This document shows positions 21,113 to 63,340 of a stretch of DNA of 64,000 bases, one piece after another; position 1 is the first letter of the stretch; each line of letters begins with the position of its first letter. This DNA is from Psammoneis japonica (Eukaryota). Below the pieces are notes generated by a model that was given only the letters and a program-made list of their open reading frames with translations, had not been told where the DNA came from and did no database searches. Location: the NCBI GenBank assembly GCA_008632985.1, contig QPGO01000082.1, positions 248,001 to 312,000 on the forward strand, given 5' to 3'. Position numbers and translations under genes: made by a program.

Positions 21113-21492
21113 TGCAATATGCGTTGTTATGTACGTATTATATATGTATATCTATATATTAAAAAAAAAGTATATTTCAATCGTACGTCAATCGTGGGTT
21201 CGTACGAAGTACAGATCGGTCACACAGAAGTGATCGGATGTCGAGAATCGCAAATGCGATCGTACGATGATGTTGACATCTTATGTGTCAATATCAATCG
21301 TATCCGGACAATCTGTTGTCACGATCATATTCTCCGAAAGGCCTTTTGTCTGTAGGAGCAGTACAAAAGGTTTAGGCTATTGAGAACCCGTTCGGAGAAA
21401 CCCAAAATGATTGCACAGAAATGATTCTCATGATTTTCACTTTTTGTGCTTGATTCTACTTTCGTTTATACTCGTTCTTCGAGCATAGTGCA
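21113..21492 (+). repeat. Gypsy 3' LTR
   Basis: Matches 16316-16694 with about 10 transitions and one A-run indel. Confidence 0.95.
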
Positions 21493-27622: not shown

Positions 27623-27695
27623 GATGTAGGATATAGTGTAGATACTTTTTTGGGCCCCAGGGTTGACGGAGCCATTGGATCGGTGTAGTTTTAGG

Positions 27696-34459: not shown

Positions 34460-37400
34460 GGGGCCGCAAGGGATGGCTGGCATTGTCTTCGCCGTTGAGG
34501 CAGAACAACCACGGCAGGTGATTTCCTCCCTTTCCCACGTCACTTTTAGTTTCACACTCATGCTTGCCATTGTTGTTGCTGTTTGTTCTGTGACATTCGA
34601 GTCACATGCATGGGGTTTGTTTCTCTTTTGTTTTGGCATCAGCCAACACACGTTGCATTGTCATCTCTTGCATTGCCATTTGTTGCTCAGTGCATTTCAT
34701 GCGATGCCTTGGCATTGCGTGCTGGCGAACATCATCTGTCTTTTCATTGTTTGCTTGTTGCATCAGAGTTCTTTTGGAACACGCCATTGAAGCCATGGCA
34801 GCATCACTTTTTTCTCTTGTTGAGGCTTTGGCACAGATGCCAAAGGAGTGGTGAGGGTGTGCACAGAGCAGCTGGCTGCAGTGGCCTTGGTCATCAAGCA
34901 GAGTCAGCAAAAGGGTTTTGTGCTGTCTCCAAGAGTCCACAACAGCTTGAGATGAAATCAGGCCACCAGTTGCCCTTTTTTGTTCTTGATGCGCTGTTGA
35001 TCAACCCACCTGTAAAATGTGACAAAACACAGAAAAAGAGAGCTGATCAGAATGTTTTGGCTTGCCAAAAAGAAGTGTGTGGGCAGGATGCATGATGCGT
35101 GCATTGGCACTGACACAACTGCACAGGGACTTCGACTCGAAACTTGTGATCCTCTTCCCAATGCCTTTTAATTTGCGAATGACAAAAATGATTGTCAGCA
35201 CTGATGCAAAAACTGGCACTCTTCTGCACATGAATGTCCCATCAATGGCACTTGACGGCTTCTTGAGCTCCCAGTGGGATGGCTTGCAAGTGTGCATTGC
35301 CTTGCACATGTGTGATGAAGAGCACATTGGCAAACAAGTGTGACATGCTCTGAGGCACCAAGCAGTCTCCACGCCATGGATTTGCTTGAACTTGAGCAGG
35401 CATTTGAACATGTGGCTCCAATGCAGACACCACTCAGTGCCAAGAAGCAAATCTGGTTTTGCCTCACGTTCTGGCAATGGAGTCTTTCTGCTGTGCATTT
35501 CTTGTCACATTGCTGGGTCTGCACCAATTCTCCATCTTCACAAAAGGAGTGCATTGTGTGACTGCCAGAATCCATTGTGGGATGTGCCAACAAGGCATGA
35601 GCATCACATTTTGTAAGGAGCACAAGGCAACTTGTTGGTTGCTTGTAGTCTGAAGATGACTGTTCCCTGCTGAAAAGCCAAAACAAGTGCCGTGACTAGC
35701 AATGGTTGGCTGGGGGCACATGCAATGCAAAAAAGATGCTGCAACACAACAGAGCAACAGTTCTGTGCTGCAATCCAACCTGTTTGTTCAACACCCCACC
35801 AGTTCTGTCAGTGGGATGCCAAAAATGATGTGACACAACTTCTGTCGATGCAACAAGCCAGTGAGAAACCACAATCAAAAACAAAACAAGAAACCTGCCC
35901 AAGCCATCACAATGTGCCTCACTGTGTTAAAAATCACACCGCATGGGGTGCAGAGGCATGCTTGCTGTTGTCCATGTCCATCATGCCCACACCACAAAAA
36001 CAACCATGATTTCACACTAAAAAGCATGAAAAAGCAGGATGACAAGTGAGGGTTAGCTGAGGGGGATCACAACACATGAAAAACAACACTCAAATGCAAC
36101 AAAATAATGACATTGTGTTGCATGCACGTCCACACTGCTCTAAAATCCATCACACATGTTCTTGTGCCAAAGCTTGTCTCTCTCCATTGTTTGTGCAAAA
36201 CCAGACTTGACTGCCATCTGATCAGGTGCATTTGCTGCAAATGTGTTGATCTGAAAAATGCCTGATCAGATGTCAGTTAATTGTGCATTTTTCACAAAGA
36301 CAGAATTTGCTGTGAAAGACTGACAGATGGTTTGACCTTTGTCTTGGTGGTGCCAGTCTCCACAGCTTTTTCGATTGTGATTGCTCTGCAGCATGAAAGA
36401 CAGCTGCTGAGTCTGAAGGTTCTGGCACTCAAATCAATGTGCCATTTGCACAGCTGTCCCTCAGCCCAATGGCAGCAGTGGGGGCTTGCCCCAGTCTCCA
36501 TCCTTTGGCAGGTCTGCAAGGTCCAAGCTCCTCACACCACAATGACAAAGAGACAGTTGAGAGCAAGCAACAGAGGCTTCACCATGAGTCTGCACAATGG
36601 CTGTTCTGGCAAGGGCTGTGTGTGCACTTGAAGATTGTGTGGCAACATCCACGCTCACAGCCGAGTGATGGCTGCACCTGGAGAGCACACCCACTGACAA
36701 CTGTGCAGAAAATCCCACCACCAGTGCTCCACAGTTGAGCCTCTGCACAACAATCACCTGCTTTGCATGCTGCTCAGTGTGCAGAGCTCCAAGAAGCATC
36801 TGACCTGGAGCTCCAGAGCAGAGCAGGTCTGCTGGGTGTTCGGTCGAGACCTCTGGTGTCTCAGTGGGACAGAGTGCAAGCAGAGTGCTTCTGTGTGCTG
36901 ATGTGCAGTGGCAAGAGAGCTTGGTCAAAAGTCCTTCACAAAGCTGCTGGTGACAAAATTGTGAGCTGCCCAGATTGTGAATTTGGCAAATGGCACAAAT
37001 GGCCAATTTTGTGAGCACTTGCATTGGCAGCCAGTGCACTCTCCTCATGGGCAACCACACTGTTGCTGAAGCAACAGACAAATGTTCCAAGAACATGCTC
37101 TGTGCTTTTAAATCCTCAATGGCTTCACAGTGATCAGCTTGCTGACAGGGTCAATGTGGCTCAAAAAGAAACACAAAAAGAGCTCTGATGGGCAGAGGCA
37201 CAGACACATGTGGACAGACTGGGTTTCTGGGCAGATGACCCATGACTCTCCCTCTGGTGAAAAACTTTGAGAGGTGGGAGGTTCTCTCTGAGAACTTGGG
37301 GGCACACTTGGAATTGCAGCAGCTGGGGCACTCCTCTTCCTCAAAGGCAAGTCCAGGGCTGCTGAGGGTTCAGCAGGAGCAAGACTCCAGCCAGGCCCAG

Positions 37401-39060
37401 TGGAGGTGGGGTCAAGTCAGCAGGTGCCTTGTTTGAGTCCATGGCAGGAAACTTGGGAAGGCATGAGTGGAGATGGCAGGGCATGAGCTGCCAGAGGAGG
37501 CACTTGAAGGGGCAAAGGAGGTGACTGGGAGGTGAAAACATCAGAGGCTGCTTGAAAAATTTTGCACTTGGGGGTCTTGAAATGCATCAACCTTGACTTG
37601 TTGGTCTTCAACCACAGTGCACTGGTGTGCACTGTCTTTTTCCAAAAGGGTGGTCAGCTCTGGAGATCCCATGGCAGACAGCAAGCCCTGATTGGCAGGA
37701 ACAGTGCTGCACCCATCCTCAAAAGCAACTTGAAATTGAAGGGTGATGGCTCCCATTTCAATGCCATCTGGCTGCTCAGGAGCACCAGCAGGGCCACTGG
37801 CAGCGTTGCTCTGCACTGAGTTCCACATGCAGACACACCATTTTGGTGACTGCTTCTTGCCACTGGCAATTTTCTTTTCAAAAGTGCTGATGGGGTGCCC
37901 CCAAACACACTGTGCTGCACGTTCAACTTGCTTGGTTCCTCAATTTTAAGTTTTCTTTTGTGTTTGTTCTGTGTCTTTGTTGGCTTCATTCTTCTCAACC
38001 ACTGCTGTGACAGACAATGATGCTCAATTCTCTGTCACCCTTTTTAACTTGATTTGGCTGCTGATGTGTGCCCTGCATCTCTTTGACTGCGCACTTCAAA
38101 CTGTGGCATTCATCAGACAAACAGTGTCCACAGCCTGGCACACTGCTCAACACACAACTGTGCATTTTTTGACTGCTGTCTTGAGCCAAGGATTGCAGAT
38201 GTTTGAGCCAAGGATTGCAGATGTTGTCTTTTTCCTGCTGGTGCTTGTGCAGAACTTTCTTGTTCTTTGTCAATTTCTAAAGCCTGCCTTTGGTGGTGGC
38301 CTTGACCTGCTCAATGCATTGTTTGAGAAAAAACTCAGACATTGTGGGACAAACAAGCAACACATTCAACTCTTGCTGCCATCTGACAACAACAAAAAAT
38401 TGAAAATGAGCAAACCTTGGCCAGGCAAGAAGACAAAGCATGTGATGCCAGGTCAGCCAAAGTGTGATGCAAGACTCACAAATTGTTTTTTTGCACCAAA
38501 GCTGTTGTCTTCTCACAATTTGTGTGAAAAAACAGAGGGTTGACTGGCAACTGATCAGGTGCATGTCACAAATGTGTTGATCTAAAATGATGCACCTGGT
38601 CAGCTGCCAGTCAAGCCCATTTTTCACAAAGACAAAATTTGCTGCAAAAGATGGGCGGACAATTTCTTGGTGCTGGTGTGCAGAGTTTCCATGCAATGAC
38701 TCTGCAGTGCAAAAGATTGCTGTTGTGTCAACTCACAAGGTTTGCCTTCTTGTTCTTGTGCCCCCCTGTTGCTGGCCTTCCAGGGTGAGGTTTGCACTCA
38801 CAGCAGAATCCTTTGCTTCCCAGGGTGTGGCTTTCCAGCAATGCTCTCTCCTTTTCAGAGGGGGTGAGGAGCTCCACCATGGCAATGGCTGGAAACCCAT
38901 GTCTTTGCCATGGCTGATGAGTCCCAGTCATTTTTGCTGACAAAAGCTGTGTCTGCCATTCATGAAGAGCATCGCTTGGGCAACCTTGGCACTTCTCATC
39001 TGGCAGCGTTGAAAGCTCGATTAGACTGTGTCTCGATGTGCATTCCAAACTCGAGCTCAT
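34460..39060. mobile_element. TpA/CpG-depleted degenerate repeat block
   Basis: Abrupt compositional switch between two normal genes; TG/CA-saturated. Confidence 0.65.
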
Positions 39061-41959: not shown

Positions 41960-44900
41960 ACACCCGCCGTTTTGGCCGGAGCGAGGACTGTTGAATCCAT
42001 CTCAGCAGGTCAGCACCTTGATGACGTGCGACAGTGATCCACAGCACTGGGTCCAGCTGGAGGGCACATCTCCTGCACAGCATGTGCAACAGGAGACGAG
42101 GCAGCAGGAGAGCTGTGATGCTGTGGAGGCAGTGGCCAGCAGGAACATGGTCAAACAAATGTCTGCAGCATGCACACACACCAGCCTGCACTGTGTGTGA
42201 AAAAAATCAGCCCAGTCAACAAGCTGATGCAAGCCAGGGGGCTTGAGCATCATTCCTGTGGCTCAACTGTGGTGGTCTCCAATCTGCGCACGTTCATCGG
42301 CCGGTGCAAGAACAAAGTTTGTCCAAGACAGAAACTCAGCTCCAGTTGCCTGCAAAGAGCTGCTGCAAGGCAGCACTTTCTCTGGCCTGGAGGATGGACT
42401 CAAGCACAATTTGGGGGGTGGGGGTGGCCAGTGGCTTGGGCTGACCAGATGCACTTTTTTCACACAGCTCAGCCAGGCTCTTTGTTGGGCACTCTCTTGA
42501 GGAGTGAGCAGAAGTTGTTGGAACACCGGGGTGCACTGTGGTTTTCTGAGCACAGACAAACAATGTTGCAGTGAAAGATCACTGATGACCATTGATGATG
42601 TCATGAGTTTGCATCATTTGTGAATTCACCATGAAGGTGGGTTTCATGCTCACTTTTTGGCTTGTGCACCAGGGCAGCACGGCAGCAGTCAGCACAGACA
42701 AGCAGTGCTTGCAATCCATGCGGCAAGTTCAGGGGTCAGCAAGACCAACACAGACCAGTTGGCAAGCTGTGAAATCCCAGCTCAGAAGCCAAAAGGGCTG
42801 GCTGGGAAGTCATCAAAAATCCAGAGGCACAGCTCATGTCAGTGGATTGTGGCAAACAAGCTGGCTGGATGAAGCAAGCACCAAAGAAACAGTGTCTGGA
42901 GGACCTTGCTGTGCTGAAAATGGGTGCAGCAAAGTTGTGTAAGACCAGGATAAACATTGACATGGGCAAGGACACAACTGAGTGCAGAAGCATGAAAGAT
43001 TTGAAAGAGTGGTGGGTGTGTGATGCCATTGCTGAATTGGGTCACAACAGGTGGATGGATGTGCAGAGACCTTGAGGAAAACAAGTGAGCATGTCAGAAG
43101 ATTGTTCAGGCTGGAGATGCAGGTGCTGGCATCTCTGAGGCAGAAAAACAATCCACAGGAGCTGGAATGCCCAATGCCCATCAGGTGCAACAGCATCAAA
43201 GAAGGACAAGGCAATCTGGGGGAAACAATGTGATCACTGTGTGAGGCAGGGTGTGACATGCAAGATCAAAAAAGGCAAAGAGGCATTCAACACAATTGTG
43301 GGACAGTGCACAAAAGCCATCCGTCACAAGGTTGAAGGAGTGATGGAGTTTGTGAGGGTCACAAAGGAGTGGGATGTGGTGGTGCCATTGGAAGTTCACA
43401 AGTTGATCTTGTTCAATGCAAATGAGAAATCTGCTCACTTGTTCAGGCTGTCAAGGCTTGGAAACAGCTGGCATCATTTTGTCAGGATGAAGGAGAGCTG
43501 CTCTAAAATCATTGCAGTTGGTTCATGAGTGTTGCTGAGATGGTGAAGGGTCCTGTGCAGAGTCACACTGGAAGAAATTGCCAAGAAAGAAGATGGGGGT
43601 TGAGAGCAAGGATGCTGATGGCACCCGGATAAAAGAGAGGATCAAGTTGTCAAGAACAGCACTGTTCATGGAAGGCAAAAAATGTCAGTGCTTTGCTTTT
43701 GAAGGACTTGCACCAGCAGTTTCCACTGAGGGTTGACAATTGCCCCCCCCCATTGAGCCAGGGATGCACTGCAGGTGTTGAACACATGTGGGGCCAACAA
43801 GGGACTTGAGGAAACGCCAACTTGCAAACACAGAAGAAGCAGTCAATGTGGATGCAGCAAGGGGGGGGCATGTGAGAAGATGTTTTCTCATGGTTTGTCG
43901 GTGGAGTCAGATGCTGAAGTGAGCCACAGGTCTCATGAAGCAGCTGCCATGTTGTTGGGTGCATGATCAGTGTGCATAAGGTCAGTCATTGACGGCTCTA
44001 TGCAAAGGAGTGTTGAAACATCAGGGCATTGTGCAGATTTTCCAGAGGACAGACAGACAATGTTGCAGTGAAAGATCTGATGACTGTTGGTGATGTTGTG
44101 AATTTGCATTTGCAAATTCACTGTGAAGACAGGTTCAATGCTCATTTTTAGCTTCTGCACCAGAAGACACAGCAATCAGTGCAGAGCAGTGTGTGCAATC
44201 CATGCGGCAAGTTTGGGGTTGGCAAGACTGACACAGATCAGTTGGCAAGCCGTGAAATCCAGCAGAAGTCCTCATCTGGAGAGGATGGCTCTTGCCATCA
44301 AAGCACCATGGAAGGCATTGCCAACAGGGCATAAAAACAGCAACTGGTGCAAAATGTGCTTCTTGAGGATGGTGTCAAGCTGTTTGATTTGCTCACAAAA
44401 CAGCTTGCCCTCTTGATGCAAGGCAGAACATGGGTGTGCTTCATGAGCATCATGGGTGAGCCAGCACACCATCACACAGCAGCAAATCAACCACAGCAAT
44501 GTTTGGATCATCTGGGCACCGCTTCATGTCAGCACATGGGCTGGACAGGAGGTGAAATTTGCATGGCAGAGCTGCCCCAAACTCTGTGGGACTTAAATGG
44601 GGTCCAGTGTGTTGGTCCAGGGAAAACAGATGCAAGGTGCCTTTGCTGCAGCCAGCACAAGCAAGCCACAAAGGAAGATCAAAAACAGGTTGGGCTGATG
44701 CCCAAAATAGCCAACTTGTCATGCCAAAAAGCAAAAAAGGTGACAGACGTTGAAGCTGCTTTTGGCCCACCACACAATGTGTGCAAAAGAGTTTGCAAAA
44801 AAGCAACAAAAGTTGTGCCAACAATGGCTTGGGTGCTGTTGGCATGTTTTTCCATGCCATCAAAGTTGTGATGTTGCACTCTGACATCCATCAGGTTTGG

Positions 44901-45470
44901 GGGCGGCGGGGTGCTGTGCTGGCACAGGGAAATGATGCGCGCTCACTTTGGTGAAAAAGACCAAGCCATTTTGAGCCAGCCAGAAAAGCAAGTGTGTGAA
45001 TTGGTCAAAAGCTGCCTCTTGCACAACCCAAGCAGGAGCACTTTGCAGCCAACGTCACTGTTGCAAGAAACCACAAACCAGCACACACCACCCACCCTGC
45101 ACCCAAAGGGCCAGTCTTGAGAGAGATGCTGCTGGCCTGTCTGAGTGCTTGTCTACTGTACAGTTGCCCAGCTGCTTTCAACTGCTCTCTTGCAAGCTGC
45201 GGCCACCAGCAATCTCCCCAATGTGAAGCCATCCAAATGGCGACCTGAGAGATGATGATAAAAAAAAAACAGAGCACCAGTGACACTCTTGTGCTTCTAA
45301 CCCTCACCAAACACACCAGGATGGCTGATTTTGAGGTTTTGAAAAAGTCACACCAAGGCTCTTGAAAGGAGGGCCTCGGAGCAAAAAGAAGAAAAACATT
45401 CTCGCGCCGTTGTTCGGAGTTGTTCAAGTCAAGAAGATCTTGATGGGAGCTGATGATGACAACAAATTAC
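41960..45470. mobile_element. TpA/CpG-depleted block containing a short Copia-like LTR relic
   Basis: Compositional switch; internal direct repeats and gag fragment. Confidence 0.7.
42516..44268 (+). mobile_element. Internally deleted Copia-like relic: LTR-like repeats ~42516-42788 and ~44011-44268 around gag remnants
   Basis: Shared acaatgttgcagtgaaagatc, gcaatccatgcggcaagtt and cagttggcaagc; aaaggag purine tract before the second copy; KEAFNTIVGQCTKAIRHKVE and LLKDLHQQF..VDNCP gag-like fragments. Confidence 0.7.
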
Positions 45471-49499: not shown

Positions 49500-51690
49500 G
49501 AGACTGCTCGCCCCCCCTGCGCGCTGCTCTGTTGATTTGGAGGCAGCTTTCTGCGGGTCGATCATTGATCGAGACCCTCGATCAACGAAATGTCGAGCAC
49601 AGGCGCCTGCTGAGCATCTGCGGTGATCAACGAGACTCGAACCCTTGGTCAATGCGGGAAACCTCACCTCTCCCTCTGAGCTCCACATGATAGATTTCAC
49701 AAAGAACGATGATGACGAGTTGCATTTTCATGCATCGTGTCACCGACTTGTGACTCGTCAGATGTGAATCAAGCCCTCCACATGGCTGACAATGTGGCCG
49801 ATGATGCCGACACCGGAGACCATGATGGCGACATGGCTTCGATTTGCCCCCATCCACCGTCACAAACCATTGAACAGTCATTTGAAGCGACATCAGCAAC
49901 AAGGGATTGGGACAAGGAATTTGGGGAGTTCAACCCGGACTCCTTTGAAAGGGATGCCGCGCGCCATGTGACAAAATGTGGAATCAACGAGTGTGGTGCC
50001 ATTGCTGGGGACGGAGTGACCAATCAGTCTACATGGCCAATTGCACCAGAGCAAGTCGCTCTTTTCAAAGATGCGCTCTTTTTTGCGAATCCATTCACTG
50101 ACGAATTGTTTTTTGTTTCAACAGAAGCCGACGCGTTCCAGCCCTGGGTGGGACTCCATGTGACATTGGGCCCGCAGAATTCCACGTGCGAGCTCCGTAG
50201 TGCAAGAATTTAACCAATGGATGTGTTTGTCTTCAACATCAAATAAACGGCCAAGTTTGTGGTGCAATTGTGCCTCTTGCCACTCGACGTTTTTGCAAAT
50301 GCACCTGCCCTGCGCGATTCTCAAGACATCACAGAATCGCGCTGCAACAAAAAATGTCAAAAGTTTTTGGATGGATCGCTCAATGAGTGCACCGTAAAAT
50401 GACACAAAACATCAAAAAATCACGTAGAATTCTGCGTGCGCGACATGCGACGAGATTCAAAAAACTGTGGATGTCACAGTTCAGCAGTGCGAGGTCCCAC
50501 CTGGACCTGGAACGCGTCAGCCACGAGAGACGAAATGATTCATCGTGGGTTTCGTCAGGTGCAGGCAAACCACGTTGTGGACCCATCTTGCCTGCTGGCT
50601 CCACCCCGGCAAGAACAAGCACAAGATTCAGCAGCACCACTCGGCGACCGGTTGCCTCCATCGACATTGCCAAGAGGTGGTGAGAACAAGAATTTTGCAC
50701 CAAAGCTGTTTTTTAAAACCAAAGAGGAAACGTGCACCACTGCAGCAGTCCATGCATGTGAAGAAAAGGTGGTGGATGAAACAAAAAATCAAGTGCATTC
50801 TCCAATCCGCCTGTGGTCATCTGCCGAATTGAAGAAGCACAATCTCGGCGGGGACTCGAAGCTTGCGCAGCGTCTCAAGGCTCATTGGACAATTGAACAA
50901 CCACTCAGAAAGGCGGCCAGCAGCACACATCTAAAACATCTTTGTGTTCTGCATGAGACTCAGATTGTCCATGTCAAAAAACAACACTGATGATGGCGAA
51001 GCAAATCGACTGGCATTGTTTCAAAACACAAAAACACGACAACACAAAGTGCAGCAAAAGCAGCACTGCTGTTTTTTTGCCAATTGAAACTCACCATTGG
51101 CGCCCTTGACCGCATGGCATTGCTTGTTCTGCAGTGGTGGCCAAGGCTGTCACGGATGTTTTGGGAAAGAACGGCCAAAACTCGAAAATGGGGTCTTGGT
51201 CGTCTTCGCTTGCAAGACGACTCCGCTCGTTTCCCTCGGCAACGCACTTCAACAACTCCGCAAGGCACTTCCAGTGACCAACGTTTCGAACCATGGCAGT
51301 GTGGGCCCCACAACGAGAAGCCCACTGGGCGCCCGAGCGTCGAATGCCATGGGACACGTGTGGCAGTCCCAGTGGGCCACAAATGTGTTCCCTGAGCTGC
51401 TTGTTCCAAGTCTGAGTTGAAACGGTAAAAAATGCTGGAGCCTTTGCCTTTTTCATTTTGTTTTCACCACGACAACGCCATTCCTTGAGCATCCACGTCA
51501 CAGGGTCATGTTTCAAGTTCTTTGGATTATGACAAATGCGGATGTGGTGAGGATTTCCAATGTTCACCTTCAACATTCTCAACGGCAAAGCTAACGATTT
51601 AGTGAGAAGCCGAGCTCGAGCCGAGAAGGCCATTTCCGCCATCAAAACCGTTAATCAACGGGGGTCAATGGCCGATCAATCAAGAAAACT
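49500..51690. mobile_element. TpA-depleted element carrying a tyrosine-recombinase relic (Crypton- or DIRS-like)
   Basis: TA-poor island bounded by TAG-rich tracts; recombinase motifs at 51091-51645. Confidence 0.6.
51091..51645 (-). pseudogene. Tyrosine recombinase C-terminal catalytic domain with the presumed catalytic Tyr replaced by Cys
   Basis: SHGIRRSGAQWA (HxxR), VGHWK and LLKCV at the spacing of the nucleophilic Tyr (TGC codon at 51244-51246). Confidence 0.7.
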
Positions 51691-51981: not shown

Positions 51982-53701
51982 TTATGGGCACTTTCTATTT
52001 ACAATGGCGGTGCCCCATTCGTCATATTCTGAACGTGTGATCCACATATCATGAAACGTCCCCATGCTTCCCAAGATGCTCCCTCCAAGCCAACTGCAAA
52101 TAGCCCGTTCCTGCATGCTGGGGGACAACACCTTGACTCTCCACCCAGGAGTATGGGTGTGAATAATACCCTCGACCTGTTCTCGCAACAAGTCTGGTAC
52201 GGCCTGATCTGTTGGACCCAAGCAAGCGCCACCGCCACACAGCACAACATTACCGAGCAGTGACGCCTGCTGGTCACGATCGCATCGAAAAGCCGCGTCG
52301 CAAACCATACTCGGTACCGCGGCCGACGTGATTTGTTCCAACTGATTCTGCAAATAAGGCACACAGGCACGTTGTAAATGCCGGTTTGAAAAAGGCGGTC
52401 TGCTCTTGCTTTCTTTACTGGCCTTTTCGGCAGCCTTTGTTGTTCTTTTCTTTTTGCTTCGTCGCGAAGACAATCCCACGGCTGTGCTTTCATTGTACTT
52501 TTCCTTGTACTTTTCGTTTTCTTCCGTATTGGTCTCGTCCTCCACATGAGACGCGTCAGCAACAAGGGCCGTGAACTTCTTCTGTATGTCAGCCACAGCA
52601 TCTTCTCTTTGCTGCGCGACCATGTCGTCTGTACCAAACAGCAGTTCCGGAACTGCAAAACGCTTTGCAGCAGGGACATCGACCTGCTGACCATCCGGAA
52701 GGTAAAATTCCATATGAGGAGCCTTGAATTGAGGGTTTGAAGCATTGGCATTGTCAGTCTTTGAAGCAACCGACGCACCAGCACCGGCTTCTTTTGCTTG
52801 ACGAGCCACGTCGAGACGAGCTAACCGATGAAAGGGCTCGGCGCGCTGGATATGATTCTTGCGTCGAATCTGATAAAGAGGCATGAATGGTTTGCCCGCA
52901 AGAGTATCCAAGGTCTTGAGCACTTCTTCATCCATAGCCAAGCCTCCCATGGGACTCCGACGGATACCCTTTTGCTCGACGTAGCCCTCATAGACCGGGG
53001 TGACGACAGTCCCTCCGTATCCAATATCGACAACCGTTCCGGTGGTGCGTCCCGTAGCATAGCATGCCATGGTAGCATCACGTCCTAGAAAAGCAGCGGG
53101 AACATTAAGCTCTTCCATGAGACACTCCAATACTTGTTGTCGAATGGGCGGGGGGTTGTACGAACGCTCCACCAAGAGCAAGGGAAATTGATCAGTCGTT
53201 GTTCCGAGTGCCGATTCGTATCCATGCCGAATCAAGTGCTGCAACAAATCATCCCAATCGGCGCCATTACTTTCGGTTGACATGTTGCTATTACCACTAT
53301 TATTCTCCTCGTCCCCTCCGTCATACCACAAACCCGTCGTTGGGTCTACCGGATTGCTCACATGCCACTTTCCGTCGCTGTCGTCTTTGAGGCTGATGGG
53401 ACGGGTGAAATAATCATAGTGAACCTTATCAATACGACGCCGACTTTTCGATCCGTCTGATTCCGATACGGATTTATTCTGTGTTCCTTCTTCTCTCAGG
53501 ATTGCTACATTCTGTTACGAAAAAAGAAGTGTGAGTGATAGGTGCGTGAGGAATAGACCGCACAAGCAAAAAAATCCAGCTTCATCATACCGATCGAAAA
53601 TAAGACTTTGGATAATCTTCTCCGGCAAAGCCCAATTTGCTACTATACGATCCAATATCAGCTACAATAGCATTGGCGCTATCACCACCCGTATAAGCCA
53701 T
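51982..53701 (-). CDS. ARP4: Nuclear actin-related protein 4; intron 53512-53590
   Basis: Exon 1 MAYTGGDSANAIVADIGSYSSKLGFAGEDYPK; GRTTGTVVDIG; SWLGGSILGSMGTFHDMWITRSEYDEWG...RKCP C-terminus; the splice is in frame. Confidence 0.92.
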
Positions 53702-54468
53702 TGCAGAGAGAGGGAGGAAAGGCGGCAACAACAGCGTTGCTACGGTGTATGGTGTCGTCGCTCGTCGTTCGTCGTTGTTGTGCGAGTTCACAGTGCATCG
53801 TTTGCGCGAAGATGCAAGAAACGCGCGAAAAAGCTTCACGTCATGATGACAGTCTGTCCACCCATCCGCATTCGAATGTCAACTTCTCGCTCGGGAAATC
53901 AATTGAAATGCTGTCAATTGTGATCAAAGGTGTTGCTCTTCACCATGCAAATCAAAATGCCTTTGATCAGATGACATTTCAATTGAATTCCCGAACAAAA
54001 AGTTGGCAGCTCCAATCACCCTCTCTCGTGACATTGTGTGCTCACCTCTGCACGATTTTCATTTTCCCTCATGCAAAATGTCAGTTGTGACTCTTGTGAC
54101 ATTTTCAAATGATTCCCATTGACAACATTGCACTCATTATGATCGACTCCAGCTGGAGTCTACAACATGAAAGTCTGCCAAGCCGGACATCGATGTTGTC
54201 GTGCTTCTTGCTCACAAAAAATGCGCCGCCAATCTGCTGACGTCATCGTGCACATGAGCTCAACAGGACAGAGGATCTTTGCATGATCCTGAAAAAATCA
54301 TCCCTTCATGCTTCACTGCACCATGCTGAAAACCCCGTGATGATCATCCACAATGACTGAAAGTCCAACTTTTTGTCAAAATCTCTTGTCGCACACTCAT
54401 CCAGTGCCTCGCTGATGTGATCAAATGAGAAAACTCCAAATGCCAAAAATCAACAGTCCCACTGTGGA

Positions 54469-54745
54469 TGACAGAAAATGAAGGCAAATGGCAAGAATTC
54501 AAACAACAACTCCTTGCTGCTGTCTAAATGGCAGATGAGTCTCCACTCAGAGACCGTTGCAGGAGCCGAAAGACGCGCAAGTCGGCACAATCGGGCTGCT
54601 GTCATTGTTCTTGTGAGCCTTGTGGCTCGAAAGCAAACTGCATCGCGCGCGAACGCGTGGAACTAAAAGCACACAAAACTGTGCGCGGCAAACTAAACAG
54701 CGCGCGACATTTCGCGCGCACCTGAATCCTGTTCAAATCCTGTCA
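54469..54745 (-). repeat. Copia 3' LTR
   Basis: Colinear with 61303-61579 without indels. Confidence 0.95.
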
Positions 54746-57700
54746 CTCCCCAGTTTGCTTGAGGAGCCACAGAAACAGATTCGACTTCGGATGAAATGAA
54801 GTTCCAGAACATGAGGGGGCGGAGAAGGTCCCAGATTTGGGAGCAACCCCAATGCTTGCTGAGGATGTCAGCAGGGTTGCGGGAGCCTTCGATGAAGTGG
54901 AGCCCAAGGCAACCAGAGGCAATTGCCTCACGCACACGGTGGAACGACAGTGCGGTGTGTCGCTTGTGTAACTTGGAGTGCGGGATGGTGGCACTGTCTA
55001 CAACCGACTTGTTGTCACCGAACATGTAACTGACATTGCGGATCGGGACGCCAAGGCAGTGCAGGGTGATGCGCAAGTCAACAATCTGCTCGACACAAGT
55101 CCTTGCGGCAACAAATTCAGACCCGCAGGTCGCAGTCTCCACGGTGGCTTGCTTCTTAGAGAACCAATCAGCCGGGAACTTGTTGAGGAAGTGGAGCATT
55201 CCCATGACAGAGCGTCCGGTGAGCATGCAATGGCACAAGTTTGCATCGACGCAGTGGGTGGTGGTGACGAACTTGCCAAGGGGCGGTGGAGCGTCCTTCG
55301 GGATCATCTCTTCTGCTTCGCCGCACACGGAATGCATCCATTCACAGGCCGGAGCAGGGAGATCCGAATGGTCGGGCTCTCCCGTGCGAACGCGGAGAGC
55401 ACCGTGTCGCATCTTGGAGAGGCACCCACAGACGCGTTTGGCACGATCCAAGTGGCCTTGACAGGGTGCAGCTCGGAAGCTAGAGAGTGACATGACAGCC
55501 GTGGCAATGTCAATTCGACCAAGGGACACTGCCCATTGGAGTGAGCCAACAAGAGACTGGAACTTGTGAATGCCATCGGGTCCCAGCAGTTCGGAAGTGT
55601 CCAGTTCGGGGTGGTCACCCTTCTCCAGAGGTGACAGGACGTTGGTGGCAGGTTTCTCCCCAAACAGTCGGGCGCAGCTGTCGACCATGCGCTTGATGTA
55701 CTTGCGCGGAGACAGGCACAAGGTTCCGTCGGGATCCCGGGAAAAGTCGCAACCCAGATGGAACTCAATGGGTCCCGCACCCTTGAGCTTGAACTTGTGC
55801 TTCTCCGTGAGAGTGTTGACGAAAGATTGAGGGTCCTTCATGGCAATGGCGAGGTCATCCACATAAACAGCAATGCACTCACAGTGGTCGCCGTTCCTGC
55901 ACATCCAAATGTCGGGTTCGGCGCGGCAGGGGAAGAAGCCTTCAGCTCGCAGGCAGTCGGCGAAGCGCTCGTGCCAGCGGAGACCGGAGCTGCGCAGTCC
56001 ACACAGGGCCTTGTGGATGACAAGGATGTGTCCTTCGAGTTTGCCAAATTCGGGTCCGGCTGCAATGTAAAGCTTCTCCTTGGTGGTGGCTTCAAGGCAG
56101 GCATTGCCAATGTCGGTGGCCCATGTCTCCAACTCGTTAAGTTCGGCCAGGAAAATCATCAGCCGAAGGCCACGGAGGGAGACTGCTCCGGAGCAGACAC
56201 TGTCGACAGGTGCATCTGTGAGGTGCCCGTCGGCTACGAGTCGTGCCTTGTGGCGACCGTCGTGTTTCACGTCGTACACCAGGTGCACTCGGATCTTCTT
56301 GTGTCCCGCAGGAGGAGTGGAAGACTCGAAGGGCCTGCAGTCATGGAAGACTTCACATTCGTCGAGTTGGTCCATCTCGAGATTAGTTGCGTCTCCCCAT
56401 TTGCGGTTGCCGTTGCGTTCGTCCAGTGACATGGCATGTTTGCAGTTCCGGGGAACTTCGCATCCACACTTGTGGCGAGGTGCAGTGTGGAAGGAGCGAA
56501 GCTTGGCTTGGCTGGCCATGCGAAACAGCTTCTTTTGGCACCTCGCGATGGTGCGGAACCGCTTCCAGCCATCCGTGTCAAGGAGTCCGTTCTCTCGTGC
56601 ATAGATGGCGCAGGTGACGGGGTTGTCCTTGGCGATGATGGCAAGAGGCTCGGACGTGATCTCCCCACTTTCCCATTCAAGCATGATGTTGTAGCTTGAG
56701 CCTTTCCAGGTTGGGTCGTGAGGCTTCAGAGGTCCTTCGTGTGACACGATGCGTCGAAATTTCCAAATGGCAGTGTCTTCGTCTCCTTGCTCAATGTGAT
56801 TCATGATGTCATTGCAGGCAAGGACTTCCTCGCATTCGTCGTTGTTGACAGAGCAGACGAACTCAGTGAGCTCGGGATTGCCGCTCACTTTCCATTCGTG
56901 GTCTTCGACGGCCTTGACGATGTGAGCTCTGTGGCGTTGTCCGTCCTCTTGTGGCTGCATGAGGAAGGTGCGTCCAATGATGTCTTGCGGATCAAAAACT
57001 GGCATCTTGGGTGTCCTGATCTCCCCATCAGGAGAATCGACGGGGTTGTCATCATGGCGAGATTTGATGATGGGTTCAGGTGGCTCCCCATCAGGAGGAT
57101 CAAGACGCAGGTTTCGAACGGCAGGATCGGTGGCAGCGGAGCGGACGTTGGACCGGCAGAGGATCTTCTGAGTCTCGTCAGAGAGAATCTTGAAGGTCAT
57201 CTGGTGGCCGACGTGCTCAGCAATGCCAACGAAGCGTCCACGCAACTCACGGGATTTGGACGGCCAATCGGAGTCATCGAGGTGGAAGTGCACGGGTTCC
57301 CACCAGTGAAAGCGAAGCAATGGGCTGATGTCCGGGGTGGAGCCAGTGAGAGTCTCGAGGGGCGTGCGCCAGTGGAGACATGGGGATGCTGCATGGTTGA
57401 GTGTGAAGCACACACACATGAGCGCCAGCAGCCATGTGTGGGCGGGCGAACCAAAACGATCCATGACAGTGTTCGCCATGCGCTTCACGGTCTGGTGTCG
57501 ACGCTCGGCAAAGTTTTGGTGTTGCTGGTGAGGTTCACTTTGCCAGCTGGAGATGAAGAGGGCCCGTGGGATCCCGAGCACTTTGTTGCTGATCTCAACT
57601 TGAGCACGGTCGCTGATGAGTTTGGATGGGGCACCACGCTCACGGATCTGATCCTCGAGTGTGTTGACAAACTCTTTGTCCATCTTGGTGCCGTAGACGT

Positions 57701-60363
57701 CAGTGACGGTAGACTCGGTGCCAACAAACAGTTGGGCACTGGTGCAACCAGAGTTGACGGCCGGGGTGTCGGCATGAACGGTGTCAGTGGCGACAGGCTC
57801 GTTGCGGCGGTGCACATTGAGGGCGGGGTTGGGTGATTTGCAGGCCTTCCTGAGGTGTGCACCGGCAGGCATGCGGGCGCACTGCGTGGTGCAGTCAAAA
57901 GTACGACGGACCGTGTCGGCAGGCAGGAAGCCAAAGCAAGGCCAAAGAGACTCGAAGGGCGGGTCCTTGGGCTGTGCAGTGCGCTCCGGGGGCGGGACGT
58001 CGTCGTCCTTGGGGTCAATCGCGTGTAGATGACACTCGCAGAACACGTCGTCGTTCGGAATGAGGTGATCATCGAGGGCGGACGCGTGATCGGCAGACAA
58101 GGAAGCGGACATGATGGTCTCGTTGACAACGACACGATGACGGCAGTTGCCGCATTCGTCAAACAGGTTGGCAGTGGGATCGTCCTGCAGGTCAGAGATC
58201 GCGTCGCACCACTGGTCGTCATCAGTGACAGAGTGATCGAGGACGGAAGGATCCCATGTGTCATCACCGGTGAGGATGACATGGGGCAGGGTGTCCCATT
58301 CGGCATCAGTGCAAGGTCGCATGGCAACATGAGGCAGGCCGGCCTTGATGTCAATGGGGATGACACAGCCATCAGGAGTGGCAATGCGTTGCAAGCCATT
58401 GGGCACCTTGACAGAGTGATCGTTGACATCCTGTTTGTGCCATTCGAGCTGGCCGCAGGAATGGATGGTCTTGCCCTTGCCCGTGTGTGCGTGCTGATGG
58501 AGGATGGCGATGACGGGACCACGCTGGGTCTCAATGACGGCACCAGCGGTGACAACAGGGATGTCCACCAATTGATGGTCGTCAATGCCCTGAACGTCGA
58601 CTTGGCGAGAGGTGCGTGCAATGACGCGAACGTCGTCGCCAGCAATGCCGCCGTTGGCCCCACGATCGACTAGAGTGCCAGTGCGTGTGGAGCGATGAGC
58701 AGAGGCAGAGCAAATGACATTGTGGTTGTCAATGCGGCGGCAAGTGCGGCCGTTAAGTTCCATGTCATCGGCAGAAGCTGGCGGGGTAGAGGGAGTGGCG
58801 GATGGCCCCGGTCGACTGGCATTGGGGGCTTGGTTAGGAGACAACAGACGGTGCAGATCACTGGGTGGCAGTGGCTTGCGCTTGGTGAGGTGCGCCAGGA
58901 TGGGATTGTCCGAAGTGGCACCCACATTTGGAGCAGAGTCACCAGAGTCAGCAGGAGTCGTGTTGGACAAGTTGACATCACCGTCACTCCCAAGGCGTTG
59001 GTCATGAAGGTTGGCCGTAACGGACTCATGGCAGTTGCTGGCTCGCGGGTTACGGGGAGGCGGACGAGAATGCTCAAGGATGATCGCCTTGGAGGAATGG
59101 GGCAACGAATCCCAAATCTGTTGGTGGTCGGGAGGGAGACGTTTCCATTGGTCACCGGCAAGGCTGGGACCACGGGTGCAGGCAGCATCAGCCTGAAGGA
59201 CGTCAATGTCACTGTCAATGTCGTAGAACACATCGTCGGACGGTTCGTCGGAGTGGACATCGTGTGCGCACATGGCACGTCGGGGAGCTCGAGGTGTCGT
59301 CTTGGGTTGAAAAGTGCTGTCGCATTGAGCTGCCGCAGAGAGGAGCAAGCCACAGCATTGATCGCATGTGAGGCTCTTGCCACTCTGCGTGCGATGCTGG
59401 TCAGCTTGGTTCTTGACAGCACGGAGTTCCTCGACAGGGTGCACGGCATTCTCGAGCATGACGCGCTTCTGTCCTTCAGAGAAGTGGTCACTGGCCGGGA
59501 TGAGTGCCTCGCACTTGCGCAACTGATCTTGCCAATGAAGGATGAACCCGTGGGTCGGACCTTTCCAAGCACCATCACCAAGACGTGCGGTGGTGAGGCA
59601 CGTGAGCAAGGTGGAGGACTCGACAGATGCGCGGGTGGAGGCAAGCGCATGCTCAGACAAGGCACGGCAGACGGTCTGGGCGTCAGAAGACCCCACATTT
59701 TCGCGGATGAGAGCCTTGCCCTTGTCGGTGAGAAGGGTGCGTTTGAAGACAGCGAACATGCACTTTTGCTGTTCAGCAAAGAGCAGTTTGTCTTCGAGGC
59801 TGGTCGGTTTGTACGATGAGTCTAGAATGCACTCGACGTCTTGGGCACGGGCTTGTGCCACAAGTGAGGTGTGCCAAGTGTGCCACTGCTTGTCGGATTT
59901 GAGAGCCGTGAAAGCGGTGGGATCACGCTTGATGCCTCGCTTGAAGTCTCGCACTGGGTCGCGTGCCTTGGTCGGGTTGGTGACATGCGGAGGTGCGAGG
60001 GGTGAGCTGCCGATGGACACAGAAGACATGTGGTCGGGGCTGAGGCGGCAGGCAAGGAACTCGTCATGCGTGAACAACGAGGAGTCATTGGCAACGTCAA
60101 GACCTTTGTGTGCTTTGACAATGTGCAGACCAACTAGAGCTGCTAACATGTTCTTACAACCACGGGGCAATGGGATCACACCAGTGCCGTTGTCGCACTC
60201 AAGCGAGTCGATTTGGGACGGCATGAACGTGAACAGTTCCTGATGCGAGTCCGTGCCGTCTTGGGCCAAAGCCAAACGAAGAGGGCTCCCAGCACCTTGG
60301 GCAAGCACGGTTCCAACAACGTGCTCGAAACCATCGGTTTGTTGCTGACGAGTGAGAACCATG
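54693..60363 (-). pseudogene. Copia gag-pol polyprotein, open but hypermutated
   Basis: FKRGIKRD, LVDRGANGG, VATDT..SDRAQ..SEPHQQHQNFAER, DGRHKARLVADG, DIGNACL, YVDD, WFSKKQATVETAT, NPADILSK; only about 10 Tyr in ~1890 aa. Confidence 0.93.
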
Positions 60364-61302
60364 GTAGACGAAAGTGGTGTCAGGACAATCAATTCTTGTT
60401 GGGAAGCGAAGGTAGACTTGAAACTTGGGTGAGAATGGACTTGACTTGAAATGGACTTGACTTGAAATCTTGAGCCATCTTAAAATCAGAAGTCGCCGGG
60501 CTTTGCTGTCCCGTTCGTTGTCAAGTGCTAAACTTCCTGTCCGGTCCGTAGAGTTGTGCCGGCACGTCCGAACCCGCAGCTGGTGGCGCTTTGGGTTGCT
60601 TGCGAGCGGAGCAGCGGGTTGCAAACCCCTGCAGGCAAGCTGACCAGAGGTGGACAAGACCCCCGAACCATTCTTATTTTACATCGGTTGGATTTCCCGA
60701 TCAGGCTGGCCAGTTGACGCAGGCGTCAGGCGCTGTGGACGAACGAACAAACGCGGGAAAGCACCCTCGCCCCAATGCAGGCTGCAATCACGGCTGCTTG
60801 CTCTCACAGTCGTCCTCGTGGACCTGGCAGAACTGCAGAGCACCAGCAGTCCGGGGCAGATCAGGTGCAATGGACTCGGTGTGCTTGTGGAGTGGCAGCA
60901 AAACCACAGTCCGAAGAGTGGGCACAGGTTCTTGGCTGTGAAGATGTGCACATGTGCAAATGTCTTCAGCGGCGAAGATCCTTGAACATGCAGGGTTCTT
61001 GACCGTCAACCGATGAACAGGCACACCAAGGGATGAGGATCAAGGACAGACTTGGATGTGACCGTTGAATGCATGTCTTCAGCGATCAAAGGCAGCATGA
61101 TCAATCCAGACATCCAGCGGCAAGGAGACTTGACGGTGACGTTAACTTCCTGCCGATGCCCTGGTGTTGAATGCGCGCAGACTTGCCGATGTGTGTAGAA
61201 CACATGCTGAGGTCCACGCAGAAATTGAAGTGGTGTCATTGGCAAATCAACAACGATGATGGCGGTTGCTCAATGGGTTGACAATGAGCAAGACTGTTGA
61301 TC

Positions 61303-61579
61303 TGACAGAAAATGAAGGCAAATGGCAAGAATTCAAACAATGACTCCTCACTGCTGTCTAAATGGCAGATGAGTCTCCGCTCAGAGACCGTCACAGGAGC
61401 CGAAAGACGTGCAAGTCGGCACAATCGGGCTGCTGTTGTCATTCTTGTGAGCCTTGTGGCTCGAAAGCAAACTGCATCGCGCACGAACACGCGGAACTAA
61501 AAGCACACAAAACTGTGCGCGGCAAACTGAACAGCACGCGACATTTCGCGCGCACCTGGGTCCTGTTCAAATCCTGTCA
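61303..61579 (-). repeat. Copia 5' LTR
   Basis: Matches 54469-54745; all differences are transitions. Confidence 0.95.
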
Positions 61580-61924
61580 GTGGTGGAAAACTCCACGCAA
61601 TTTCAGCACCAAGTTGTGCATGTCAAAGGTCAGTCATCACCAATCGCTGAACCAGCTCCCAAAATGACTCGGTCGCTGTCATCTGACATTTTTGCTGCGC
61701 TTGTTGTCACATCAGCTGTGGTCTTTGTGAGCCAGAACCCCCCCAGTTAGCTGTTGTTGTCATGTGCGGCCATCAATGTCACGGCGTCGTTGCTGTGATG
61801 TTTGTGTTGTGTGTGTCGGAGTGAATTCAAATCGATCACTGCGAATTTCGCAGCACATTCTACATGCGCAAACTTTGTGTGGGTCAGTGCGGGAACCGGA
61901 TTTTTGAAAGAGTGCGTTGCGCTC

Positions 61925-62090
61925 TCGCGGAGCGAGGTCATGGGTGGCAGTGCGGAGCCATGGGTGGTCGCGCGTAGGCCATGTTGGTGGTCGCGCGGAG
62001 CCATGTGGGTGGTCGCGCGGAGCAATCGAAATCAAGGGTGGTCGGGCGGTGGTCGTCGCTGGTCGCGGTCGCCGCAGAGGCCATGGGTGA
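61925..62090 (+). repeat. Short GC-rich imperfect repeats (ccatg..ggtggtcgcgcggag)
   Basis: About 5 imperfect copies of ~20-23 bp. Confidence 0.6.
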
Positions 62091-62236
62091 CTGCGCCCGC
62101 AAAAGGGTGCAAGTGCAAACTCGAAACTCGGCCTCATGGCTCATGGTGACTGCTGAGTGGCATTCACATTGCGGATTGATCATTTCGCTCTTCTTCTTCT
62201 CCTTGCAACAAATAGAAGTAGGTACTACAGGAACCG

Positions 62237-63340
62237 GTGTCACCTATTATGCAAGCTACGATCCATCGTTGCTCCAAGATGCTCGTTCTAGGAGAAAAAG
62301 ATGTGCGCCGGTGTCTGTCAATGTCGGATTGCATTGAAATGAACAGAAAGGCGCTGACCTCCCTGTCAAAGAGGTACACAAAGGACGGCAAGCCAAGTGG
62401 AGTCGTTCCGACTCGTTTAGCATTGCCTTACAGCAGTGGATTATCGACTGGAGACGATGAAGCTCCTCAAGACTGGACTCTCTTCAAACCTGCAGCTTGG
62501 TATTCACCCGATAATGTTCTAATGGGGCTCAAGATTGTTTCTGTCCGCTCCCACAACGCATCGATCGGGAAGCCAATGGTTCCCGCGACAATCATGTTGG
62601 TGGATGCTCAATCTGGAGAATCGCATGCGACTCTTGGTGGGACTTACTTGACCGCAGCACGAACTGCTGCTGGAAGTGCTGTTGCTACTCAGCTCTGTTG
62701 TTCACAGGAACCGTGTCGGAATCTATTGTTGTTTGGAGCCGGGATGCAAGCTGAATGCCACATCGATGCTCTCATGTGTGTGTTACCGAACATCAGTAGT
62801 ATTAAAATTGTGAATCGCACAAGAGACCGAGCAGAATCTTTGAAAGAGAAAGTTGCAGAGCAGTATCCAACCGTGTCGATGATAGAAACGATTCTTTTGA
62901 AAGACCACGGGTCGGTAAAGCTGGCAGTCTCGGAAGCGCATGTTATTGTGGCGTGCACCAACTCACCTACGCCTTTATGGGATGGATCATGGCTTCAGTC
63001 AAACTGTCATGTAATTGGAATTGGTTCTTATACGCCCGATATGCAAGAAGTGGACAGAGAGACTGTGGACCGATCGAATATCCTGGTCGACACGTGGGAA
63101 GCCCTGCAAGTAGGAGATTTGAAGCATCTCGACTCAAAAAGCAATCAGGCAGCCTTATTGGGGGATGCGCTATGGGATGAATCCAAGTGTAATGCTGGGA
63201 AGGAAACCGAGAGCGACAGTAGAAGGGATTGCACTTTTTACAAAGCAGTTGGGACTGCTATTCAAGATGTATTGACCGCAAGTATGGTAGTGGAGCACGC
63301 GAAGGAACTAGGTATCGGTACAGAGGTGGATATGTCATAG
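62237..63340 (+). CDS. Ornithine cyclodeaminase / mu-crystallin family protein
   Basis: LTAARTAAGSAVAT, LLFGAGMQA, IGIGSYTPDMQE, YKAVGTAIQD; the true start may be the ATG at 62279. Confidence 0.9.
   Translation: MSPIMQATIHRCSKMLVLGEKDVRRCLSMSDCIEMNRKALTSLSKRYTKDGKPSGVVPTRLALPYSSGLSTGDDEAPQDWTLFKPAAWYSPDNVLMGLKIVSVRSHNASIGKPMVPATIMLVDAQSGESHATLGGTYLTAARTAAGSAVATQLCCSQEPCRNLLLFGAGMQAECHIDALMCVLPNISSIKIVNRTRDRAESLKEKVAEQYPTVSMIETILLKDHGSVKLAVSEAHVIVACTNSPTPLWDGSWLQSNCHVIGIGSYTPDMQEVDRETVDRSNILVDTWEALQVGDLKHLDSKSNQAALLGDALWDESKCNAGKETESDSRRDCTFYKAVGTAIQDVLTASMVVEHAKELGIGTEVDMS

Follow-up and report, generated by a model that had tools for sequence, protein, structure and literature searches.

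The locus studied here lies in a stretch of 64,000 nucleotides of Psammoneis japonica DNA (contig QPGO01000082.1, positions 248,001 to 312,000; hereafter the window) and raises the question of how the polyprotein of a Copia retrotransposon, encoded in an open reading frame (ORF) of 1899 uninterrupted codons, could have lost most of its tyrosines while the frame itself remained open. The original prediction, made from the letters of the sequence, had proposed that Tyr was replaced by Cys or His through a change acting on double-stranded DNA rather than through editing of the sense-strand RNA. The best explanation, to which we give a probability of roughly 0.8, is that a young, CoDi-like Copia element in a pennate diatom was hit, after its integration, by a local hypermutation of the DNA that turns TpA into TpG or CpA. 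The features discussed below are collected in Table 1.

Tyrosine makes up 0.53% of the polyprotein (10 residues), cysteine 3.58% (68) and histidine 4.89% (93), as compared with medians of 3.82%, 1.24% and 3.11%, respectively, among the best 150 of 44,152 relatives found with HMMER, and the predicted scarcity of tyrosine is thus borne out. The element was aligned by MAFFT with 30 long relatives, a consensus was taken for each column, and the relatives were scored in the same way with each left out of its own consensus. At the 19 columns with a tyrosine consensus the element has Cys in 10, His in 2, Tyr in 4, Phe in 2 and Ile in 1. At the remaining conserved columns it agrees with the consensus in 311 of 356 cases (87.4%), which equals or beats 29 of the 30 relatives, whose agreement ranges from 65 to 90% at non-Tyr columns and from 68 to 100% at Tyr columns. 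With 311 of 356 other columns in agreement against 4 of 19 for tyrosine, the loss is specific to this one residue, and the polyprotein is in all other respects well conserved.

Most of the motifs that had been listed as carriers of a lost tyrosine stand up to this comparison. The position in question is Tyr in all 30 relatives for KALCGL, in 26 of 30 for both DIGNACL and AGHKKIR, in 19 of 28 for ETATCGSEF and in 19 of 30 for the first His of HKCGCEVPRNC, and at these positions the relatives therefore carry tyrosine, and not the Cys or His of the element. The HCVDA position is mixed (Phe in 14 and Tyr in 13 of 29 relatives). By contrast, KHWGC is a weak case (Tyr in 6 of 27), and the second and third Cys of HKCGCEVPRNC, at which most relatives have residues other than Tyr, do not appear to be former tyrosines. 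The suspected change of CTA to CCA in LGIPRAL is compatible with the alignment, where the Pro is matched by Leu in 12 of 28 relatives. Two of the replaced tyrosines are invariant, namely that of KALYGL (30 of 30 relatives) and that of column 1690 (29 of 29), and their replacement makes a loss of protein function likely. Relatives with a full set of tyrosines score no higher with the RVT_2 reverse-transcriptase model than the element does (82-97 against 85.5 bits), and the score of a version with its tyrosines restored would thus tell little.

As the codons of tyrosine are TAY, most of the lost tyrosines became Cys (TGY) or His (CAY), and the underlying change is seen as a loss of the dinucleotide TA. 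Between positions 53750 and 62210 only 49 TA are left, against approximately 253 expected; dense TA ends at 53748 on the left and resumes at 62213 on the right. Within the ORF the observed/expected ratios (o/e) are 0.12 for TA, 0.86 for CG, 1.33 for TG and 1.60 for CA, whereas the window outside its depleted domains has 0.60, 0.97, 1.15 and 1.16, respectively. Counting the stop codon, the ORF retains 32 TA, which fall in all three codon phases (11, 8 and 13), and the loss is therefore not an effect of codon usage. What was lost as TA and CG (a deficit of 267 in the Copia domain) is balanced by a gain in TG and CA (an excess of 333), and the GC content of the depleted Copia sequence is raised to 55-59%, as compared with approximately 48% nearby. 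At conserved columns the element departs from the consensus 59 times, and 26 of these differences can be reversed by one transition; they consist of 13 TA>TG changes in the sense strand, 3 TA>CA, 8 of CpG type and 2 others, so that 16 of the 26 are of TA type. The substitutions are thus concentrated at TA, and since the relatives carry tyrosine at the positions in question, neither of the two observations named as refuting the original prediction was made. Biased gene conversion toward GC was rejected by reasoning, as it is not dinucleotide-specific. The survival of tyrosine at conserved columns (4 of 19) matches that of TA overall (49 of approximately 253, or ~19%), and a selection protecting tyrosine was rejected on this ground.

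The same dinucleotide accounts for the open frame. The stop codons TAA and TAG contain TA, and its loss can make neither TAA or TAG nor a new TGA, so that the frame stays open; the earlier expectation that the element could be inactivated with no stops created thus follows from the genetic code. No stop is found in the 1899 codons, as against 12-86 TGA in each of the other five frames. At positions 54696-54776 the frame extends 22-29 codons past the C-termini of the five closest relatives and into the 3' long terminal repeat (LTR), and the codons CAA (1878), TGG (1881) and CAG (1888) in this extension could be erased TAA or TAG stops.

The timing of the change can be read from the LTRs, which are identical when an element inserts. 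The two Copia LTRs now differ at 14 sites, of which 5 are TG in one copy and CA in the other, 1 is TA against TG, 6 are CG against TG or CA and 2 are other A/G differences. At the TG/CA sites an ancestral TA was therefore resolved independently in each LTR, after insertion. Neighbouring sites only 3 bp apart were resolved in opposite directions, which favours many separate hits over a single processive sweep along one strand. The LTR pair of a Ty3/Gypsy element elsewhere in the window differs at 9 sites (7 TA against TG or CA, 1 TG/CA double and 1 CG/CA). A:T>G:C changes confined to TpA thus make up 6 of 14 events in the Copia pair and 8 of 9 in the Gypsy pair, and the rest are of CpG type except for 2. 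The conversion of TA took place in DNA, after integration.

The loss also reaches beyond the Copia LTRs, by approximately 700 bp on the left and 630 bp on the right, and is hence regional. A single-copy stretch on the left (53749-53879, in a contig of depth 58) has no TA against ~5 expected, and one on the right (61838-62202, in a contig of depth 45) has 2 against ~15, the expectations being computed by hand from a background TA frequency of 4.06%. The two flanks have no similarity to each other or to the repeat at 49.5-51.5 kb at E<=1e-4. They could represent a spill-over of the process or remnants of older mutated repeats; in either case they were never part of the Copia element RNA. On the right, the domain ends (62212) approximately 10 bp before an ORF of the ornithine cyclodeaminase family (OCD_Mu_crystall, 62222-63337), a coincidence for which selection, or a chromatin boundary lying at the gene, may be responsible.

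Changes from TAY to TGY and from TAY to CAY both occur, as had been claimed, but the process is not strictly strand-symmetric. TA>TG outnumbers TA>CA in the sense strand by 13 to 3 at conserved columns; the tyrosines of the nearest relative are aligned with Cys in 31 cases and with His in 9 (433 and 188 when pooled over the 30 relatives); and over the whole Copia domain the sense-strand excess is 181 for TG and 152 for CA. The core of the Gypsy element, which lies on the opposite strand, has the same sense bias (TG excess 85, CA excess 29). A sense-strand surplus of A>G would fit a loss of TA before integration, by ADAR-like A-to-I editing of the element RNA with a 5' U preference or by an APOBEC-like deamination of its cDNA, directed at A, in the course of reverse transcription, so that the copy was born TA-poor. 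A Gypsy core that was hit with its LTRs and ends spared could likewise have arisen by editing at the reverse-transcription stage, or if the element had recombined with a mutated donor. Such an origin is nonetheless quite improbable: the two LTRs share one template and yet differ by TG against CA at 5 Copia sites and by TA-site events at 8 of 9 Gypsy sites, the flanks outside the Copia LTRs are TA-poor as well, and TA>CA is common, as the sense-strand excess of 152 indicates. The predicted action on DNA rather than on sense-strand RNA is therefore supported by the LTR splits and the TA-poor flanks, which are stronger arguments than the strand symmetry from which it had been deduced.

The bases around TA also influence its fate. 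In all depleted domains taken together, ATA is reduced to 0.03 of its background frequency, GTA to 0.08, CTA to 0.15 and TTA to 0.24. Among the surviving TA, TTAA is enriched 4.8-fold and CTAA/TTAG 3.2-fold; ATAC/GTAT stands at 0.13, and ATAT is absent from the 159 surviving domain TA, as compared with 95 of 1238 in the background. This preference, combined with C-rich third codon positions, may explain part of the apparent strand bias, the two effects being inseparable here. A rough hand estimate puts the rate at TA sites at least approximately a hundred-fold above ordinary substitution, given a TA survival of ~0.19 and 2 differences outside these contexts per 277-bp LTR, with the loss of CpG being intermediate. 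The statement that CpG is still abundant in the element holds in that its o/e is 0.87, but its decay has already begun, as 6 of the 14 LTR differences and 8 of the 26 single-transition codon changes are of this type.

An adaptive avoidance of TA has to be considered as well, whereby an active lineage would have purged the dinucleotide (e.g. in escaping a TA-directed nuclease or editor) and would tolerate Cys and His in place of tyrosine. The ORF is intact, the Tyr of the YVDD motif in the RVT_2 domain is retained (in a CTAT context) along with three other conserved tyrosines, and the family is very abundant, with a summed contig depth of 60,000-158,000 against ~58 for single-copy DNA, depth not being copy number. 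This alternative is barely credible, however, as the invariant tyrosines of KALYGL and column 1690 were replaced, tyrosine survives no better than neutral TA, the LTR sites were resolved differently after insertion, and the non-coding flanks are depleted too.

The Copia element is one of several targets. In bins of 500 bp the window contains seven TA-poor domains with sharp borders, three of which keep CpG while four have lost CG too, and in the six others the excess of TG and CA again mirrors the deficit of TA and CG (641/605, 114/140, 412/417, 402/387, 298/272 and 86/79). Retrotransposons or high-copy repeats make up, or lie within, three of the seven, whereas neighbouring genes (encoding actin-related, ARM-repeat, MIF4G and OCD proteins) have a TA o/e of 0.4-0.9. 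In the Gypsy element the pol ORF (17886-19301) has no tyrosine in 472 amino acids, where 120 relatives have 3.7% as their median, and its 13 conserved Tyr columns read Cys in 7 cases, His in 3 and Phe in 3, with no Tyr. Its LTRs and approximately 700-900 bp at each end have normal or high TA, whereas in the Copia element the depletion, conversely, overshoots the LTRs. The third CpG-keeping domain is a repeat with a summed contig depth of ~52,000-65,000 (58 for single-copy DNA) and may be a fragment or a non-autonomous derivative of a related element; in the run contigs, junctions connect it with sites in the interior of the Copia element (e.g. 50519>60033 and 55365>50130). The four domains poor in both TA and CG have TG and CA o/e of 1.8-2.0, and they gave no Pfam match and no tblastn match with the Copia and Gypsy proteins. 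In our reading they are older targets, where a methylation-type decay of CpG has caught up.

Taken together, the following sequence of events is proposed. On either strand, the A of TA would undergo an A:T>G:C transition, so that TpA becomes TpG or CpA, and approximately four fifths of the sites would have been converted, ATAT-like ones being preferred over TTAA-like ones, at a rate far above that of ordinary substitution. The process would be aimed at domains rather than at exact element borders and would have affected several transposon families in the window. Decay of CpG to TpG or CpA, presumably through cytosine methylation, would trail more slowly and eventually leave older domains with neither TA nor CG. 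The Copia frame would stay open throughout, although its protein is probably dead. The dinucleotide signature, its direction, its timing after insertion and its regional nature are direct observations, while a role in genome defence would be a plausible function of such a process.

Whether the depletion is a property of the Copia family was examined in related sequences. TA o/e is 0.51-1.02 in 78 of 80 metagenomic loci that encode relatives, and in four control loci Tyr is retained at 13-15 of the 15 Tyr columns covered; the depletion is therefore not a family trait. An environmental contig of another assembly (L050, positions 1-2766), whose Copia reverse transcriptase is 63% identical, retains 3 TA in 2766 bp (TA o/e 0.02, CG 0.44), has 2 in-frame stops and reads His in 5, Cys in 3, Phe in 5, Gln in 1 and Tyr in 1 of 15 columns, and a second locus from another assembly (L048, positions 1-2561) is intermediate, with a TA o/e of 0.33. 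Replacement of Tyr by Cys or His is also found in four public protein fragments (P0213, P0253, P0293 and P0372), in which the choices differ at the same columns, and the process has thus hit other diatom-type Copia elements independently.

These sequences also bear on a possible artefact of sequencing or assembly, in which a base modification at TA (in older domains also at CG) would be misread strand-wise as TG or CA. An outcome of TG or CA, but never CG, is indeed expected from strand-specific miscalls of a symmetric modification. The window differs from the contigs of one sequencing run (X1) by small indels (e.g. 10 gaps in 3236 bp), as long-read assemblies do, and the sequencing data that contain window DNA consist of four runs from one sample and one study, possibly the data of the assembly itself, with no RNA listed among them. 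Yet k-mer contigs of run X1, with depths of 35-60, reproduce unique DNA and a TA- and CG-poor domain with 0-8 other letters. The TA-poor element is present in the run contigs in thousands of pieces, which differ mostly by transitions (A>G at 116 places, G>A at 100, C>T at 128 and T>C at 82, against 6-14 for each kind of transversion). The same signature occurs in the unrelated public sequences L050, P0213, P0253, P0293 and P0372, and a preprint on Bigelowiella natans describes the mutation as arising de novo in Illumina data. A base-calling artefact is unlikely on this evidence, and sequencing and assembly errors as a whole retain very little probability.

The closest described parallel is found in that preprint, by Mettrop et al. 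(10.64898/2026.01.13.699255). It reports that 231 of 302 nuclear point mutations in mutation-accumulation lines of B. natans fell in regions of integrated giant-virus and virophage DNA; with a single exception these were A>G or T>C, every GC-biased one lay at TpA, and the rate was ~1000 times the background, in some lines only. TpA-poor coding sequences of B. natans are enriched in reverse-transcriptase and DDE domains, and the authors propose, without proof, an ADAT2-like DNA adenine deaminase (10.64898/2026.01.13.699255). The two systems share A>G or T>C changes restricted almost entirely to TpA and leading to TpG or CpA on either strand, sharply delimited targets in mobile or foreign DNA, a mutation rate well in excess of the background and a long-term loss of TA with a gain of CA and TG. 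They differ in that B. natans is a chlorarachniophyte (Rhizaria) whereas the host here would be a diatom (Stramenopiles), in that its giant-virus region has a Rho(TpA) of 0.45 whereas the LTR retrotransposons here are near saturation (o/e 0.05-0.13), and in that de novo events were measured there whereas only a footprint is seen here. By analogy, the process appears to be of the same kind, newly seen in diatoms. What the present locus adds is the timing from LTR pairs, the involvement of flanks, the preference for flanking bases, the Tyr>Cys/His footprint and the loss of TA before CpG. The words 'diatom', 'CpG', 'context' and 'retrotransposon' do not occur in the available preprint text. No report of TpA hypermutation in diatoms was found in full-text searches of the literature or in a 2025 preprint on diatom transposons, a scope outside which subscription journals and bioRxiv supplements fall.

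By the same analogy, the chemistry of the process preferred here would be an enzymatic deamination of adenine in DNA to hypoxanthine, which is read as G. A lesion on the thymine would be the alternative. For example, a dioxygenase of TET/JBP type, marking silenced transposons, would oxidize T at TpA to 5-hydroxymethyluracil and then to 5-formyluracil; the latter mispairs with G, and the outcome would be T>C. TA being palindromic, every count given above would be the same for a T>C change on one strand as for an A>G change on the other. In dinoflagellates, 5-hydroxymethyluracil made by a TET/JBP enzyme is linked to transposon silencing, and older work cited in the same report found T to be replaced preferentially in TA and TC (PMC11572971). 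On the other hand, no TC-context signal was seen here, and none was looked for, and the B. natans authors favour the adenine deaminase, also without proof. A thymine lesion is unlikely on balance, though not negligible. No deaminase is present among the scanned ORFs of the 64-kb window.

The process preferred here, TpA hypermutation of integrated DNA, resembles repeat-induced point mutation (RIP) of ascomycete fungi in several respects, being a DNA-level, transition-only and dinucleotide-specific process that acts on repeated or mobile DNA, leaks into flanks and inactivates its targets in place. RIP consists of C>T changes mainly at CpA, and it creates TpA, raises AT and makes stop codons. In the window, by contrast, TpA is destroyed (o/e 0.05-0.13), GC is raised and the Copia frame has no stops. 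The A-to-I hyper-editing by ADAR in animals, whose substrate is double-stranded RNA from repeats, is similar in its A>G direction, its preference for a 5' U/T and its aim at repeats, but it acts on RNA, whereas the LTR pairs and the flanks outside the element were changed in integrated DNA; ADARs are moreover a metazoan family, according to the Discussion of the B. natans preprint (10.64898/2026.01.13.699255). The CoDi elements of diatoms (Maumus et al. 2009, PMC2806351) are like the present one in being LTR elements with an RVT_2 polyprotein, and relatives with normal tyrosine abound in marine metagenomes. A word search of that article returned no instance of 'TpA', 'dinucleotide', 'RIP', 'hypermut' or 'deamination'.

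A broader proposal, which we hold only tentatively and at somewhat less than even odds, is that diatoms, and perhaps much of SAR (Stramenopiles, Alveolata and Rhizaria), possess a dedicated enzyme that would edit A, or the paired T, at R-T-A-Y in double-stranded DNA and would be aimed at transposon chromatin in episodes. It would silence elements quietly, through Tyr>Cys/His replacement and the erasure of TAA and TAG, both before CpG-methylation decay and independently of it, and would amount to a natural base editor of A:T to G:C in DNA and a RIP-like defence of opposite polarity common to Rhizaria and Stramenopiles.

Several points weigh against the explanation favoured above. Given the palindromic nature of TA, a lesion on A and one on the paired T are indistinguishable by sequence. 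The summed depth over 53672-54338 is 944, approximately 16 times that of single-copy DNA, and the flanks might thus be an older mutated repeat. The sense-strand excess (13:3, and 85:29 in Gypsy) could reflect some transcription-linked or RNA/cDNA-level contribution. The spared Gypsy ends are not predicted by a model in which whole elements or whole heterochromatin blocks are targeted, and the TA-poor Gypsy core could in part be inherited from a mutated donor copy. Finally, the four sequencing runs come from a single sample and so provide no independent evidence that a read-level artefact is absent.

The only matching description of TpA-directed hypermutation that was found is the one 2026 chlorarachniophyte preprint, and a footprint in diatoms extends its range. 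Saturated in two superfamilies of retrotransposons and seen to act on integrated DNA, it takes the phenomenon from one species to a second eukaryotic lineage, of another supergroup branch and of great ecological importance. The question of the enzyme becomes tractable by comparing deaminase and dioxygenase genes between species with and without the footprint. Further handles are offered by the preference for certain flanking bases and by the succession of losses, TA going first and CpG later. For annotation, it is a warning that long intact ORFs can be dead genes, as the process removes stops and makes none. Genome engineers, too, would take an interest in a natural enzyme capable of A:T to G:C editing in double-stranded DNA, if it exists.

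With regard to its structure, the Copia locus consists of a complete LTR element of the Ty1/Copia type, 7111 bp in length. A self-BLAST of the window finds a direct repeat pair at 54461-54745 and 61293-61579 with 92.3% identity, the 5-mers next to the LTRs (GTGGA and GTGGT) agree at 4 of 5 positions and are a putative target-site duplication, and the purine-rich tract directly inside the 3' LTR is a putative polypurine tract. The RVT_2 match lies well above its score cut-off of 31.6 bits. RVT_2 is also the sole Pfam match in relatives with normal tyrosine, and the Pfam scan found neither integrase nor protease in the element or in its relatives. A relative of 1881 amino acids (P0121) aligns with the element over 1928 columns and, in tblastn, covers positions 60362-54777 at 48.9% identity. 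The closest database match to the reverse-transcriptase piece is 68% identical, with no close copies among the protein databases, and the nearest named relatives are from Cylindrotheca. Among named organisms, Nitzschia, Seminavis, Mayamaea, Cylindrotheca and Pseudo-nitzschia supply the best relatives of the adjacent actin-related protein (51982-53361), the top match overall being 66% identical, and the host is accordingly likely to be a pennate diatom, judging from these similarities.

Table 1. Positions and composition of the elements, flanks and TA-poor domains in the window
Feature	Position	Strand	Properties
Copia polyprotein ORF	54693-60392	-	1899 codons open; 10 Tyr; 3' end within 3' LTR
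RVT_2 reverse-transcriptase domain	55677-56315	-	Residues 1360-1572; PF07727, E 5.7e-24, 85.5 bits
Copia 5' LTR (element orientation)	61303-61579	-	277 bp; + strand ends TGACAG...CTGTCA
Copia 3' LTR	54469-54745	-	277 bp; same TGACAG...CTGTCA ends; purine-rich tract directly inside
TA-poor Copia domain	53749-62212		49 TA; TA o/e 0.12, CG o/e 0.87; GC 55.5% (~48% nearby)
Left flank beyond LTR	53749-54468		2 TA in 720 bp (54138, 54161)
Right flank beyond LTR	61580-62212		3 TA in 633 bp
Ty3/Gypsy LTR element	16316-21492	+	RVT_1, Integrase_H2C2 and rve domains
Gypsy LTRs	16316-16694, 21113-21492		~380 bp; 97% identity; TA-rich, lightly touched
Gypsy TA-poor core	17000-20550		TA o/e 0.13, CG 0.81
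Third CpG-keeping domain	49500-51500		TA o/e 0.08, CG 0.84; high-copy repeat
TA- and CG-poor domain	9400-16300		TA o/e 0.05, CG 0.10, TG 1.89, CA 1.91
TA- and CG-poor domain	21500-26400		TA o/e 0.05, CG 0.13
TA- and CG-poor domain	34500-39000		TA o/e 0.06, CG 0.11
TA- and CG-poor domain	42000-45200		TA o/e 0.06, CG 0.12; reproduced in depth-35 contig of run X1

The window contains a single N, at position 3374. Of the TA- and CG-poor domains, the first two in the table lie on either side of the Gypsy element, which may have split a single old element when it inserted. Tandem arrays with units of ~215-570 bp are found in the second of these domains (23695-24823 and 25076-26111), and two further arrays (26415-27639 and 27696-28339) lie just outside its edge and have an intermediate to normal composition.

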